NCBI GenBank assembly: GCA_963514005.1
Contig: OY740781.1
Coordinates: 35,526,001-35,590,000, forward strand
Length of the DNA stretch: 64,000 bases
Source: Raja brachyura
Lineage: Eukaryota
Direction: 5' to 3'
The translations under genes and the position numbers were made by a program. Positions 30,605-42,296 of this stretch are shown in pieces. Positions within the stretch are counted from its first letter, which is position 1. Each line of letters begins with the position of its first letter. Below the pieces are notes generated by a model. The model had not been told where the DNA came from. It worked only from the letters and a program-made list of their open reading frames with translations, and did no database searches.

Positions 30605-31895
30605 TAGAACCTAGAACGGTGCTGCATGGGAACAGGCCCTTCAGCCCACAAAGTCTGTGTGGAGCATGCTGTAAAGGCCAACTCTTAAATGCCTGCATAT
30701 AATCCAGATCTCTCCATACCCTGAATATCCATGTCGCTATCCAAAAGTATATTAAATGTTACTGTCGTATCTGCGTCCACCATAACCCCAGCAGCACTTT
30801 CTAGGCACTCGCCACCCTCTGTGTGTAAAAAAAAACTTGCCCCGCACTTTGCCCCTCTTTCCTTAAAACTATGCCCTCTAGTATATGACATTTCCACCCT
30901 GGGAAAAATGTTTTGACTGTCTTCCTTCTCTATGCATCTCATAATTATATATACATAGAAACATAGAAATTAGGTGCAGGAGTAGGCCATTCGGCCCTTC
31001 GAGCCTGCACCGCCATTCAATATGATCATGGCTGAGCTGATCATCTAACTCAGTATCCCGTACCTGCCTTCACTCCATACCCTCTGATCCCCTTAGCCAC
31101 AAGGGCCACATCTAACTCCCTCTTAAATATAGCCAATGAACTGGCCTCATATACTTCAATCGTGTCTCCCATTAACCTATGGGATTCCAGTGAAAACAAC
31201 CCAAGTCTGTCAAAACTGTCCCTGAAGCTAATACCCCCCCTAATCCAGGCACCATTCTGGTAATCCTCCTCTGCACCCTTTCCAAAGCCATCACATTATT
31301 CCTGTAATGGGACGGCCAGAAATGCACATCATATTCCAAATGTTGCTTGACCAAAGTCTTATAAAACAGAATCATGACCTCCTGACACTTGTACTCAATG
31401 TCCTGACCAATGAAGACAAGTATACCATATGCCTTCTTTACCACTCTATCTACTTGTGTTGCCATTTCCAGGAATTTATCCTTCTGTAGATTAATGCAGT
31501 TAATGGTCTTATATGGCCATATATTTTCCCCTTGAATTCAACTTCCCAAACTCAACACCTCACTTACTCAGCTTAAACTCCATCTTCCATGTCTGTAGCT
31601 GATCTGTACCCTGCTGTATACTTTGACAATCATCCTCACAGTCCATGACCCCAGCACTTTTAGTATCATCTACAAATGTACTAACTGACTCACCTACATT
31701 CACGCCCAAGCCATTTATATCACAAACAAGAGGTTCTTGTGGAACTCCACTGGTTTCAGACCTTCAGTGTGAATTTTCTCCTTCCACCACAACTGTCAGT
31801 AAACCAGTTCTGAATCGATACGATCAAGTCACTGTTAATCCAGTGCATCTTAATCTTCCGGAAAAGCCTACCTTGGGAGACTTTATCAAATGCTT
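30605..31895 (-). mobile_element. Older CR1 LINE fragment with a younger CR1 tail nested at 30955-31148
   Basis: ORFs 30685..30942 and 31172..31465 (QVDRVVKKAYGIL.FI...LERVQRR.TRM.PGL). Confidence 0.8.
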
Positions 31896-32109
31896 AACTG
31901 TTCAATTGTGGTTTCAATAGGAACCTGAGGAGCAACCTTTTTATACAAAGGATGGTGGGAATATGGAATTAACTGCCAGAGGAGGTAGTTGAGGCAGATA
32001 CTATCACAATGTTTAAAAATATCTGGACAAGTACATGGATAGGATAGGTTTAGAAGTCTTTGACTCTGACATCGGGAGGAGAATGGGGGGTGCAAGGGAG
32101 AGATAAGAC

Positions 32110-32424
32110 TCTCCAGAACAAGGGGTCACAGTCTAAGGATAAGGGGGAATTCCTTTAGGACCGAAATGAGGAAAACATTCTTTACACAGAGAGTGGTGAG
32201 TCTCTGGAATTCTCTGCCACAGAAGGTAGTTGAGGCCAGTTCATTGGCTATATTTAAGAGGGCGTTAGATGTGGCACTTGTGACTAAAGGGATCAGGGGG
32301 TATGGAGAGAAGGCAGGTACGGGATACTGAGTTGGATGATCAGCCATGATCACATTGAATGGCGGTGCAGGCTCGAAGGGCCGAATGGCCTACTCCTGCA
32401 CCTATTTTCTATGTTTCTATGTTT
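32110..32424 (+). mobile_element. Young CR1/HER1-like 3' fragment
   Basis: Nearly identical to the reverse complement of 49120-49435; ends in tttctatgtttctatg tail. Confidence 0.9.
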
Positions 32425-35640: not shown

Positions 35641-36888
35641 CAATTATTTTTAAGTGAATCTGGTTATCTCATCACCGAACAATATTTTCCTCTTTGAGAA
35701 GACAGGGTGAACAAAGAGCATGATTCTAGATTTCAGAAATTCATTATTGGGTAAATGAAATTGAGGCTGTTTTATTTTGCAAAAGAGATTCCAAAGTACC
35801 ATAATAGAAATGTTCAAGTTTTTATCTTAAAAATATTACAGCACATAAATAAGCCATTTAGCATGGATTGTTTGTTCATGCTGGCTCATTATGGGGCAAT
35901 CTGTTCTGTCTCCATTTTCAAGAGTTAAGAGTGATTAATTGTCATCAACCCGAAATAGAATAATTAAATTATTACTAGTACAATTTTGCAGTCAGATTTA
36001 AACATAGCGTGAAAAATAAATATAGAATAAATTATCAGTTAGCCTAGGTAAATCAGACCATGAGAGTTCAAACCAAAATACAAGGAAACTTTTCAGGTTA
36101 TCTCCCCTAAAGTGGTCAGTGCTGTTTTAATTTAGAATTGGGAGTGTTTGATGGAAAACTTATTTATACTGTACCAATAAATCAGAGTTTGATACCAGAA
36201 GTCCATGATTGTGCAAGCTAAAGTATTATGAGACCTCAGACTGGCACAAAAGGCTGGAGCAACTCAGCGGGTTAACTCAGCAACCATAATCAAGGAAATG
36301 TGGGGAACAAAATAGGCCGTTGCCTTTTGCATATTTATTCCATTTATTTCTCCTGTGTACTGTTATATCTCTGGTTTCTCTTTCCCCTGACTCTCAGTCT
36401 GAAGGTCTTGACCCGCAACATCACCTATTCCTTTTCTCCAGAGATGCTGCCTGACCCGCTGAGTTATTCCAGTCTTTGTGTCTGTCTTTAAACCACCTAC
36501 ACATCTTATGAGACCTTGCAAATTATTCCCCCATAAATGATGAAAACTATGATTGAATCTGTTTTCATTACCAATGTCGAGTCAAGAACAATCTTTGTCA
36601 CAAATATCTACACAAGTTATCTTGGAATCAAAATGATATTGTAGTCCCAAAGAAAATACTCCCATTGTTGCAATGGTCCCACTGAGTTCAGACAATTTGG
36701 ATGTAATATTCTGCAAAATTCTGGGACATTTATTTTGTTCTTTCTGCTTTTGCTAAAGTTAGTGTAGATTGGTTACTGCATGTGCACCAATTAGAGTAAT
36801 GTACTAACACTAGCTGCACCTTGTAAAAGCCAGTGCATGGTTAGTGCATGTGCACCAATCAGAGTAATGTACTAACACTAGCTCCACC

Positions 36889-37575
36889 GTGGTAATAGCT
36901 AGCTTCTTTCAGCTTTGGATGATAGCTAAAATAAAGCAATTCCTCCAGTTTGATGACCTAGAAAAGATCATCCATATATTTATCTCCTCCCGCCTAGATT
37001 ACTGCAACTCCCTTTACACTGGCATCAGCCAATTTTCCCTGTCCCGCCTGCAACTGGTCCAAAACGCCGCAGCGAGACTCCTGACGGGCACCCGAAAAAG
37101 GGATCATATCACCCCGATCCTGGCCTCTCTCCACTGGCTCCCTGTGCGGTTCCGACTAAATTTCAAGACCCTCCTCTTTGTCTACAAAGCCCTCAATAGG
37201 CTTGCACCCACCTACATTAAAAGTCTTCTCACCCACTACACCACCTCCAGGTCCCTCAAATCGGCCGACTTGGGGTTGCTGAATGTCCCGCAGTCTAGGC
37301 ATAAGCTCGGGGCAACCGCACCTTTGAGATCGCAGCTCCTAGACTGTGGAACAGCATCCCCCCCCTCATTAGAACTGCCCCCTCCATCGACTCCTTTAAG
37401 TCTAGTCTAAAAACGTATCTGTTCTCCCAAGCCTTTCCTGACGTCCTCTGAGTGAGGGCTATTTGTATATATGTATGTAGCCTGCTTGTGTATACTACAC
37501 TTATAACAAATGTAAAGCACTTTGGTCAACGAAAGTTGTTTTTTAAATGTGCTATATAATTAAATGTGACTTGAC
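36889..37575 (+). mobile_element. L2-type LINE 3' fragment inserted in the Gypsy 5' LTR
   Basis: ORF 36889..37410 (FISSRLDYCNSLY.G...LQLVQNAAARLL...HITPILASLHWLPV); LTR sequence resumes directly after the tail. Confidence 0.92.
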
Positions 37576-37711
37576 CTTACTGTACACTTTATATCAACAC
37601 TCACGTAGTTACTCCGGTGGTAGAGATGAACTAACAACGTATTGTACTGCACCATGACTGATGATTAAAGCTGACTTTGAACACCAGACTGTGTCTGTAC
37701 AGTTATTTACA

Positions 37712-37761
37712 TGATGTCAGAAGTGGGATTCAAACCCACGCCTCCAATTGGAGACCAGAAC
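37712..37761 (-). other. 50-nt copy of the 3' part of tRNA-Leu(CAA) at the PBS position (not a tRNA gene)
   Basis: Reverse complement GTTCTGGTCTCCAATTGGAGGCGTGGGTTTGAATCCCACTTCTGACATCA folds as anticodon 3' strand, long variable arm, T-arm, acceptor strand and (T)CA; matches recalled vertebrate tRNA-Leu(CAA). Confidence 0.85.
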
Positions 37762-40246
37762 ACAGCTATTAAACGCCTACACTACCCAATGAGAACTATT
37801 GAAGACGTTGCAACTCAAATCGGTCGTGCAACAGTGTTCTCAGTACTAGATGCCAAAAGGTCATTTTGGCAGATACGTCTCGATGACGCATCCTCAGACC
37901 TCACCACATTTGCCACACCATTTGGCAGATTCAAGTTCCTCAGAATGCCATTTGGAATTAACTTGGCCAGCGGGGTCTTTCAGAGAACTATGGAACAGCT
38001 GTTCGCAGGCTACCCATGTGCTATCATCGTTGATGACATTCTGGTGTACGGCCATGACTTAGCGGAGCACGATTCTAATTTAAAAATGATTCTGGACAAG
38101 GCACGTAAGATCAACCTAAAGTTCAACCCCATGAAGTGCAAGTTTCATGTCTCAGAGGTTACTACGTCGGACATGTGTTCACAACCGAAGGGTTAAAGCC
38201 AGACCCCAAGAAGACTGCAGCCATCAATGAACTACCCGATCCCACAGACGTCCACGGCCTCCAGCGTTTCCTGGGTATGGTTAACTATCTGGGCAAGTTC
38301 ATGCCCAACCTCAGCGAACCTATCTCGCCACTGAGACAGCTCACTCACAAAGACACTGCCTGGACCTGGTATCAGCAACACCAACAAGTGTTCGACTCTT
38401 TAAAACTTCAGCTAGCCAGCACCCCCACCTTGACGTATTTCAACCTCAAGCTGCCAGTCACTATCACCTGTGATGCCTCGCAGTACGGTTTAGGTGCAGC
38501 CTGCTTGCAAACATCAGCCGATGGCACTGTGCTACCTGTATCGTACGCCTCTCGCACCATGACAGAAACCGAGCAGCGCTATGCTCAAATTGAAAAGGAG
38601 CTGCTAGCCGTTGTTTTAGCATGTTCGAAGTCTAGAGACTTTATCTTTAGGAAAACTATTACAATTGAAACTGACCACCAACCGATGGTAATCATCCTGA
38701 ACAAGCGTATATTCACACAGCGCCTGCACGTTTGCAACGCATGATGACGCAGCTCCAGCGTTTTGATTTCCAAATTGTTTACAAAAAGGGCAAAGATGTG
38801 CTCATCACCGACACTTTCTCTTGAGTGCCACAGGCGTCCTGTGAACACCATCCATTTGCGTGCAACGAGCTTGCTGTGCTTAAAGTCGACTTCGTTCCCA
38901 CGGAACGATTGCTTCGCCTTGCGGAACACACAGCTGCTGACAGAACGCTACAGCTGCTCTCCTCCATTATCAAGAGTGGCTGGCCCACAAAACAGTCCAA
39001 CACACCACTAGACATACAGCCATTCTTCTTAGTTCACGATGAACTGGTGATACAAGATGGGATCATTGTTAAGCGTCACAAAGTTGTGATTCCTTCATCC
39101 CTGCGAGATGAATACTACAAAGAGGTCCACAGCAGCCACCCAGGTACCGAGGCTACGTTTGCCCGTGCCCAAAGCATGTTTTATTGGCCAGGAATGACCA
39201 AATAGATACGTGAAAAAACGGCATCCTCCTCCATTTGCAACAACTTGGCAACCCACCAACAGAAACAGCATCTCCTGCAACAACCCGCTCCAGAACTACC
39301 TTGGTCAACCGTCGCTGCGGATATTTTTGAATGGCATGGTAAACACTATCTAGTTCTGGTCGATTCCTATTCCAATTGGCTCGAACTTGATCTGCTGCCT
39401 ACCATTAGGTCTGAGATGGTTATACAAAAGCTTCAGAGACATTTATCTGTACACGGCGTACCAGTTCGACTGCAAACTGACAACAGGAGACAGGTCACCA
39501 GCCAGGCATTTAAAAACTTTGCCAAACGTTGGAACTTTCAGCATGTTACCAGCAGCCTCGAATACCCTCAATTCAACGGCCTCACTGAGCATGCTATCAG
39601 GAGCGCAAAACAGTTAATGGAACGTTCGCATCTTCCCAATTCCGACGTCTACCTGGATCTGTTAAACCTGAGAAACATTTCCAGGGTTGGTGATCTAGGC
39701 TCTCCCGCCCAGCGGCTGATGTCTCGCACGACACGGCCTTATGCACCGCTGTTGATTTTCAAGGCACCTGCTGCCGTTGTCCGCCCCAGACCCCCTGACC
39801 CCAGCACATATTCCCCGCGTCATTCGGTTCCCTCGTCCCCCAGTGCCCCTAGTCCTGCATGCTCACCCTGCCGCTCCTCTCCGGGCTCCCCGGCTGTGTT
39901 CTCCTTCTTCGGTTCTCCACCACCCAGCCCTACTAACTCTTCCGGAATGGAGGGGGAAGGGTTTGTCCGTACACGTTCGGGTCGGGTCAGCAGACCGCCC
40001 AACAAGTACGGTCAGTATGTTTAACCGCATGTGTTTTAAAAACTGTTTAACAACTCTTTTCTCTATGGGGAAGGATGTAGATTGGTTAGTGCATGTGCAC
40101 CAATCAGAGTAATGTACTAACACTAGCTCCACCTTACTGTACACTTTATATTAACAGATGAACTAACAACGTATTGTACTGCACCACCATGACTGATGAT
40201 TAAAGCTGACTTTGAACACCAGATTGTGTCAGTACAGTTGTTTACA

Positions 40247-40565
40247 ATACAATACAATAATACAGTTTTATTCGTCACATTACACATAAAGTGTAAGTGA
40301 AATGAATTTGCCAGCAGCGGTACAATGATAAAGAAAACACAATACACAATAAAAATTTAACACAAACATCCACCACAGCATTCATTACTGTGGTGGAAGG
40401 CACAAAATTTGGCCAGCCCTCCTCCATTTTCCACCATGGTCAGGACCTCCACTCTCCGCAGCCGTCGCTGCGGGCGTCCAGATGTGCAGACAGGTAAAAA
40501 GTCCAGGTAAGTCCTGAATCGGTGCCTCCCCCACCGGAGACCGCAACTTCAGGCTGGTGTAAACA
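40247..40565 (-). mobile_element. Short non-LTR element inserted at the end of the Gypsy 3' LTR
   Basis: (ATACA)n tail and ttttatt.gtca motif like other LINE-dependent tails; separates the LTR end from its TSD. Confidence 0.6.
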
Positions 40566-40775: not shown

Positions 40776-42296
40776 TTTTTTTTTGGTTAATATTTTTTAT
40801 TAGAAATAAATACATATTGATACATATTAAGACAATTTTAAATGTGAAAGAAAAACAAAAACAAAAGAATTTACTATTCATCACATACATTCTTAATATT
40901 TATAAAATTTACAGTCATTCTTGTTTATACTTCTACATATTTTTTTATTATTTTTAATAAAGGGGGAAATTAACAGAAAGAAATAATAAGAGAAATTAAA
41001 ATAATAATAAAAATAGAAAATCATTAATGTGAGTGGAGTTTTAAACATTCTGTACTACGTTGGAGATATATCAGTGATCTATTATATATAATTCTTCATC
41101 CATTCCCCGTCCAGGTTTCAGTCAGGCCCTCGAACCGAGCCAGTTTGTCCCTTTAGATAATCAATAAATGGAGACCATGTTCCTCTAAACTGATCTAGCC
41201 TGTCCGAGAGGACAAGTCTTAATCTTTCCAAGTGAAGTGTCTCCGACATTTCTGTAATCCACATTTTAATAGAGGGGTTGGTAGGACCTTTCCAAAATCT
41301 TAATATCAATTTTTTACCAATTATTAAACTATAATCGATAAAAATTTGTTGTTTTGTTGTTAGTGATTGATCAGTTTCTAATATACCTAATATAATTAAT
41401 TTAGAATCTGGATACAGATTTGTATTAACTACTTTCGAAATTATCTTAAAAATTTCTGACCAAAAATTAGTAATTTTAATACATTTGGTAAATGAGTGCG
41501 TTAGGTTGGCTTCTAGGTGTTGACATTTGTCACATATAGCAGAAACATTTGGGAAAATTCTATTTAGTTTGGACTTTGAGAGATGTAATCTAGATAAATT
41601 TTAAATTGTATCAGAGAGTGTCTGGCATTTAATGAACAGTAGTGTATATGTTGTAAACTTTCCTCCCATACTTCTAAACTGATTGATTGTCCTAATTCAC
41701 TTTCCCATGCTTGCCTATATATTTCCGACGGTGGTGCATCATTTTCCAATAAAATATTATAAATATATGATATTAATTTTTCTGTGTTCGGATGTTTATT
41801 TAAACATTCATCTAGAATTTCTGTCTTTCTATTTCTAAGTTCTTGTGTATTTGATTTGACGTAATCTCTAATTTGTAAATATCTAAAATATTCTTTTGAG
41901 TGTAGTTCATATTTTTGTTGTAATTCTTGAAATGAAAGAAAAAGGTTTTCCCTATAGAGATCCCGTATCTTATTAATTCCATAATTTTTCCATTGTGAAA
42001 AACCTTTATCCATCCTAGAGGGCTTAAAAGTGATATTGTTTGCTATATGAAGATCCAGTGGTATACATTCCAATTTTAAAGATTTTTTTAATTGTTTCCA
42101 AATACGTATCCCATTTTCTATTATTGGGTTTCCTCTGTAAGTTTTTTAATGTAATTTGGTATTAGCAAATATAATCGAGCTAATTTTAAAAGGTAGGCAG
42201 TCTTCCTTTTCCAATTTTAACCAATTCGGTTGTATATCTAATTCTTCCAACCAAAAATTCATATTTTTAATATTAACTGCCCAATAGTAGAACATA
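40776..42296 (-). mobile_element. 5'-truncated L1-clade LINE with poly(A) and 15-bp TSD
   Basis: ORF2 C-terminus (FQELQQKYEL...FRYLQIRDYV...LIQFKI; CDKC...H...C knuckle); poly-T at 40773-40784; TSD GTGTCCTATTAATTT at 40761-40775 and 42297-42311. Confidence 0.9.

Follow-up and report, generated by a model that had tools for sequence, protein, structure and literature searches.

Gypsy elements in Raja brachyura carry probable integrated read-through copies of their primer tRNA-Leu(CAA), with errors and stops at putative modification sites

At least 400 loci in the genome of Raja brachyura matched a pattern in which an LTR end is followed by an extended DNA copy of tRNA-Leu(CAA), and such copies show systematic mismatches opposite A58 and C47d. 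Very probably they arose by read-through of m1A58 in the primer tRNA, a microhomology join of the product to an internal site of the element, and then integration. In the steps we propose, plus-strand strong-stop DNA would often pass m1A58 and m3C47d of the mature primer tRNA-Leu(CAA), with errors, and synthesis would then stop at m1G37. The over-long tail would be unable to pair with a primer-binding site (PBS) of 10-18 nt, would often be trimmed, and would be joined by microhomology wherever the minus strand ends, which for the copy described below would be inside the reverse transcriptase (RT) gene; strand-displacement synthesis would rebuild two LTRs and integrase would insert the product. 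That copy lies in the window, by which we mean the whole stretch of 64,000 nucleotides analysed. The initial annotation had proposed read-through of m1A58, which is supported, but had missed the class of mismatch-bearing loci to which it belongs.

The element in the window has the following layout.

36758..36762, + strand: target-site duplication (TSD) GTTAG, 5' copy; 5 bp, and relatives likewise have 5-bp TSDs
36763..36888, + strand: 5' LTR part 1, LTR positions 1-60, with positions 8-58 repeated at 36838-36888
36889..37573, no strand assigned: later repeat splitting the 5' LTR, a LINE fragment of 685 bp (86% over 702 nt to locus L078; ORF 36868-37410), possibly L2-like
37574..37711, + strand: 5' LTR part 2 with terminal TTTACA
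37712..37760, + strand: 49-nt DNA copy of mature tRNA-Leu(CAA), from A76 back to U38, non-genomic CCA included
37730, + strand: base opposite A58, correct (T) in the window copy and wrong in 62 of 100 sister loci
37747, + strand: base opposite variable-arm C47d, an A where every host gene predicts G
37751..37761, + strand: junction microhomology, 10 of 11 nt common to the family RT sequence, with the crossover within the last 4-5 nt
37762..40024, + strand: remaining pol, comprising RT (N-terminus missing), RNase H and integrase, the frame disrupted by frameshifts and stops
40067..40075, + strand: polypurine tract
40076..40246, + strand: 3' LTR, 171 nt (relatives' LTRs are about 208 nt)
40247..40561, no strand assigned: later 315-bp repeat at the 3' LTR end, 92% to locus L085
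40566..40570, + strand: TSD GTTAG, 3' copy, with ACA directly before it

The coding sequence after the tract matches Pfam RVT_1 (E 3.7e-21), and the closest named homologue of the element is a skate protein (77%). Residues 1-533 of a 1357-aa relative are absent, confirming that gag, protease and the RT N-terminus are missing, as had been noted. Two LTRs, 97.6% identical over the 165 nt compared, and a GTTAG pair are present as described earlier, but the TSD is displaced, the second GTTAG lying beyond the 315-bp repeat and not flush with the 3' LTR. The product is a dead copy and not a functional module. At the start of the 5' LTR (36763-36888) positions 8-58 occur twice, with a 15-nt filler, adjoining the inserted LINE fragment. 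Two other features of the window are long arms in inverted orientation (83 nt, 98%; 119 nt, 92%) flanking about 1.1-1.3 kb at 30953-32422, possibly a non-autonomous DNA transposon, and reading-frame pieces of 160 and 193 aa on the minus strand at 41118-42145, which in translation give the impression of a LINE ORF2 3' part. No sequencing run contained half of the words of the stretch searched, nor was any RNA run listed; contigs from four runs matched it only as short pieces of relatives, with none of those listed spanning the junction, a result that is neutral for the junction.

In the window RT, RNase H and integrase stand in this order, with protease upstream of RT in relatives that are 72-77% identical, which is the PR-RT-RH-IN order of Ty3/Gypsy (Metaviridae). 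The TG...CA LTRs, the PBS, the polypurine tract and the short TSD (displaced by the later insertion) are also those of this group, and homologues bear only the database names Gypsy or K02A2.6-like; the clade may be Mag-type. We rejected a canonical provirus with an 18-nt PBS (here 49-50 nt lead into RT, with no family UTR), an amplifying non-autonomous derivative of the TRIM, LARD or Helenus kind (four shared pairs among 92 loci, and no second window junction among the 40 best-scored of 1477 candidates), and a tRNA gene, pseudogene or SINE (ARAGORN called no gene in the window, and the tract has CCA, lacks the intron and adjoins the LTR).

The tract at 37712-37761 adjoins the LTR end TTTACA (37711) without a gap and is identical at 47 of 50 bases to a host gene (L135) spliced in silico with CCA added, a match far longer than 18 nt; the three mismatches are at 37714 (CCA tail), 37732 (CpG) and 37747 (opposite C47d). 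Because the tract includes the non-genomic CCA, its template was RNA. Host tRNA-Leu(CAA) gene loci numbered 14 (12 by pattern search and two later), all of which have A58 and C47d and are interrupted by an intron between G37 and U38. These intron-bearing genes were read by hand, ARAGORN having miscalled most, and we take 47d to be the Sprinzl label of the variable-arm position. With CCA added, the 3' exon comes to exactly 49 nt. Opposite G37 the copies show no preferred base (C21 G18 T17 A13, n=69; C versus 25%, p=0.33), so the unit is 49 nt, and the 50-nt copy first described keeps its identity and its place at the LTR end but loses one base. Seven intron-bearing tRNA-Leu(CAA) genes are clustered at 9.44-9.49 Mb of C13 (L131-L137), several of them with the T-loop TTCAAAT, and such variant genes may explain some of the A bases near position 20-21 of the tracts that were otherwise put down to CpG decay.

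Patterns combining an LTR end with an extended tract gave 281 exact matches, and 258 with a base other than T opposite A58 (two sub-patterns), the wider pattern giving the lower bound of 400 loci stated above. Reversed-pattern controls gave no match, and chance matching was rejected on this ground. A set of 92 distinct loci fell into 44 LTR clusters, with only four pairs sharing a junction, and further junction mapping showed that one trio also does so. When 30 loci with a 49-nt tract were checked, 25 started at the LTR-end CA followed by the CCA copy, two were genes and three were degraded. In the metagenome, 28 loci in 17 junction groups matched the pattern, several stopping at 49 nt; A stood opposite A58 in 3 of 29 matches, and Gypsy coding sequence followed in five loci. 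One metagenome locus (L197) has two tandem tRNA tracts, with a few bases of the LTR end in front of the second.

A loose pattern for other primers returned 22 matches (one in the control), which resolved into six unrelated repeats and 16 Leu-type tracts. No non-Leu read-through was present among these matches to a pattern that excluded spacers and tRNAs giving A at position 10. In three or four of the 16 Leu-type matches the arm resembles what we take to be that of Leu(CAG). Tracts with such a Leu(CAG)-like arm (L351, L355, L358, L363) belong to a separate LTR family, two of them with A opposite A58.

The share of extended copies was estimated in two other families (A and B) from the first 30 matches of each family pattern (85 and 238 matches in all). 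Among these 60 PBS-bearing copies, 29 have tracts of at least 34 nt (30 if one with a 1-nt insertion is counted), shares that are conditional, as solo LTRs, mutated motifs and copies that have T at one position escape the two patterns. The remaining tracts of this sample, which was not length-selected, measure 10-21 nt, with none ending between 22 and 33 nt. In family B a 10-nt PBS occurs in 3 of 30 copies and 15-18 nt rejoined to the same UTR in 6 of 30: the PBS is being lengthened in this family. PBSs of 10, 15, 17 and 18 nt stand before one common UTR (L309-L338), and in family A inserts of 1-6 nt occur at the point between PBS and UTR (L164, L185).

We mapped 48 of 108 extended loci onto natural reference copies. 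In dozens of unrelated families the left breakpoints cluster 34-60 nt from the LTR, and right breakpoints range from the UTR to beyond integrase, over 4 kb. The mapped junctions comprise 23 that are insert-free, six with a 1-nt gap and 19 with an insert of at least 5 nt, five of the 48 being inverted; some of the inserts and gaps probably reflect divergence of the reference. Overlaps of at least 2 nt were found at 19 of the 23 insert-free junctions (16 of 20 with shared sites merged) against 17.5% under the null, the commonest overlap being 2 nt (8 of 23). Several copies are multi-jump mosaics. Junctions at 8-9-nt microhomology recur with different tRNA errors (L041/L043/L286 and L038/L059), and these are either hotspots or deleted copies that were re-mobilised and re-copied the tRNA.

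Integration was assessed in 44 long stretches chosen from the match lists, of which 24 could not be scored (21 whose stretch did not contain an intact 3' LTR end, three with an unclear 5' start). The 20 scorable copies have LTRs that are 90-100% identical and comprise 13 with perfect TSDs, four with 4/5 and three worse; three deleted copies have LTRs that are 100% identical. Outside these 20, two mini insertions, L227 (C1 near 185495600) and L228 (C2 near 13605800), consist of an LTR, a tract of 39-46 nt and the last 6-9 nt of the LTR (the U5 tip), with perfect 5-bp TSDs. LTR-tip repeats after the tract also occur in the metagenome (L194, L200, L205, L209). The join came before integration, since synthesis must follow it to yield two LTRs and a TSD.

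As to what made the join, host alternative end joining (alt-EJ) of the Pol theta type stands at roughly even chances, RT template jumping is possible but less probable, and a mixture or some other route is rather improbable. Pol theta junctions would combine short microhomology with locally templated inserts; the microhomology is enriched here, but few inserts (2 of 19) are significantly templated from nearby sequence, a pattern that favours neither alt-EJ nor RT. The same read-through could also be followed by a join inside the particle, with the element's own RT clamping or jumping between 3' ends that share at least two complementary bases and no host repair, and we regard this as a tentative second choice. 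RTs clamp 2-nt 3' overlaps in vitro (PMC3035444). The commonest overlap of 2 nt, the inverted joins, the mosaics and the scarcity of locally templated inserts all suit such a join; however, most tracts that were not length-selected end before 49 nt, for which trimming or internal priming is needed. Non-templated RT additions are usually shorter than 5-17 nt, and inserts of that size exceed them. A microhomology-guided strand transfer deleting gag and protease had been proposed at the outset; the microhomology join with this deletion stands, but for its RT-based part host alt-EJ fits at least as well.

Tract ends cluster before A58, G37 and G26, with a pile-up at 49 nt, just before G37. A block at position 37 had been anticipated; there is a stop near 37, but it falls before G37 and not on it. 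Five LTR-linked tracts continue past the splice junction as spliced sequence, three of them with a mismatch opposite G37, and four of the five end at 60 nt, just before G26. If the primer were instead a 3' tRNA fragment (the 3' exon or a half), which the initial annotation had offered as a second option, the 49-nt end would be a run-off and not a stop at m1G37. This is disfavoured and seems to us unlikely: the intron does lie exactly at 37/38 in 14 of 14 host loci, so that the 49-nt 3' exon plus CCA coincides with the observed end, but the five spliced copies extend as far as the anticodon or beyond, mismatched in part opposite G37 and with a further stop ahead of G26, no LTR-linked tract enters the intron (the 12 matches that continue into it are all gene loci), and stops at 18 nt occur in this population too. 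Copying of pre-tRNA was likewise rejected.

Read-through with misreading would account for the base composition along the tracts. Opposite A58, the first 100 listed matches, read by eye, have A51 T38 C6 G5, so that 62 of 100 are wrong, compared with 5 of 500 at five flanking non-CpG positions (Fisher p ~1e-51). The 38% of copies that are correct at A58 may reflect unmodified tRNA or correct read-through. For C47d, 81 tracts reaching U38 were listed and 12 intron-bearing gene loci, all correct at 47d, were set aside; the other 69 have A52 G11 C3 T3, with 58 wrong; copies that have T seven bases further along, among them the window copy and the spliced read-throughs, fall outside this U38 pattern. 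In two family samples 26 of 26 copies are wrong opposite C47d. The errors and stops thus fall at particular positions, putative sites of Watson-Crick-face modification, as expected of read-through strong-stop DNA. We presume m3C47d and m1G37 to be present on tRNA-Leu(CAA). The errors and stops would accordingly mark RT at m1A58, m3C47d, m1G37 and m2,2G26, judging by position and precedent, and the A at 37747 would be a misreading of m3C. The precedent is zebrafish, where two sources give m1A58, m1G37, m2,2G26 and m3C47d as misreading sites (bioRxiv 2024.01.30.575011; PMC8062790), with m3C47d given for Leu-CAG and Ser tRNAs and not for Leu-CAA in the accessible part of the former (bioRxiv 2024.01.30.575011).

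Variant tRNA genes missing from the assembly, or descent from a few founder elements, might also explain the mismatches, with no RT error involved. Arrays of tRNA genes can be collapsed in assemblies, and four pairs and one trio do share a junction. All three wrong bases are nevertheless found at both A58 and C47d, the same error shift appears in all three isodecoder backgrounds and in many LTR clusters, and copies with a common junction differ at positions 19 or 36 (L038/L059, L043/L286), which makes this origin very improbable.

Within the window copy's own family, 11 of the 14 LTR-PBS junctions matching the family pattern have a PBS of 10-11 nt followed by the family UTR, as had been expected of relatives (18 nt or less), in two a PBS of 14-18 nt leads into other sequence, and the window copy alone (1 of 14) has an extended tract. 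In relatives 1.06-1.62 kb separate the LTR from the RT site. This site reads GAGACCTGAAC in 14 of 25 distinct relatives, 10 of its 11 nt being identical to the tract end, and ends in GAAC in 21 of 25; the GAAC overlap noted initially is thus real but part of a longer microhomology of 11 nt with one mismatch (37751-37761). The suggested count of copies sharing the window junction yielded no second one among the 40 best-scored of 1477 candidates or the 14 family matches. That the long tract is a family trait followed by a later deletion in the chromosome is scarcely credible and already largely refuted, for although one near-full-length copy (L115/L254) has a 45-nt tract and a 4/5 TSD, most window-family copies have the short PBS with the family UTR, left breakpoints cluster at 34-60 nt from the LTR with right ones scattered over 4 kb, and the three deleted copies have identical LTRs.

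Several known systems resemble what we propose. HIV-1 strong-stop over-extension products (P3-P5) include one ending at position 37, a minor in vitro product that is stated not to be an active template (PMC13191261), and over-extension past 54 is stated not to integrate (PMC8599865). The likeness would lie in RT getting past m1A58 and being halted at a modified base further on, position 37 among them; the difference is that the HIV-1 products are described as minor ones, formed in vitro or in TRMT6 mutants, whereas the Gypsy over-extended products sit in the genome at hundreds of loci, with TSDs and with their misreading signatures preserved. Ty1 and Ty3 have a short genomic PBS, and their first plus strand enters the tRNA but is normally discarded (PMC5371799), so the tRNA copy is not inherited there, whereas it is fixed in the genome in the Raja copies; also unlike Ty1/Ty3, the PBS of full-length family B copies is lengthened from 10 to 15-18 nt (6 of 30). 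Retroviruses, too, inherit only a PBS-length copy (PMC7472051).

Second-strand transfer of Drosophila HMS-Beagle needs alt-EJ (bioRxiv 2022.09.25.509424), which would be alike in that host microhomology joining of both strands precedes integration. It differs in that the PBS supplies the homology there, while the Raja copies would use 2-9 nt of chance homology at internal sites. In mim-tRNAseq (PMC8062790) and zebrafish tRAM-seq (bioRxiv 2024.01.30.575011) RT errors and stops likewise mark m1A58, m3C, m1G37 and m2,2G26; those are laboratory methods, whereas in Raja a natural RT would have written the signature into germline DNA. In Helenus TRIMs, an amplifying family, tRNA-like sequence lies within the LTR (PMC10886601), and HIV proviral deletions include a non-primer tRNA-Gly at the 3' end (PMC12220202); they share tRNA-derived DNA in or beside an LTR element, and deletions, but each Raja event makes a fresh copy of the actual primer, at the PBS. 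The literature that we covered, which left aside most subscription journals, Repbase and supplements, contained no description of integrated read-through copies or of genome-fixed modification signatures.

The process is known in kind; its integrated scale is surprising and usable as a record, and it has no function of its own. In the retroviral model m1A58 must stop the plus strand and longer products neither transfer nor integrate, yet in Raja such products make up 29 of 60 PBS-bearing copies in two families. The junctions form a large natural sample of the outcomes of second-strand transfer, a step whose catalyst is still debated, and they reveal both the growth of a PBS from 10 to 18 nt and the origin of internally deleted copies; the tracts can also mislead the annotation of PBSs and tRNA fragments. 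On balance, we lean towards a tRNA-Leu-primed Gypsy lineage, present across animals, whose RT routinely bypasses m1A58 and whose ends are joined independently of the PBS, so that about half of the PBS-bearing copies in some families would be read-through products, leaving a datable archive of tRNA modification (including the unreported m3C47d on tRNA-Leu(CAA)) and of RT error spectra, together with a mechanism for changes in PBS length. Each extended copy amounts to a single sequencing read from one germline tRNA molecule, with the LTR pair supplying the date, and tRNA modification could in this way be read from assemblies alone, including those of species without RNA data.
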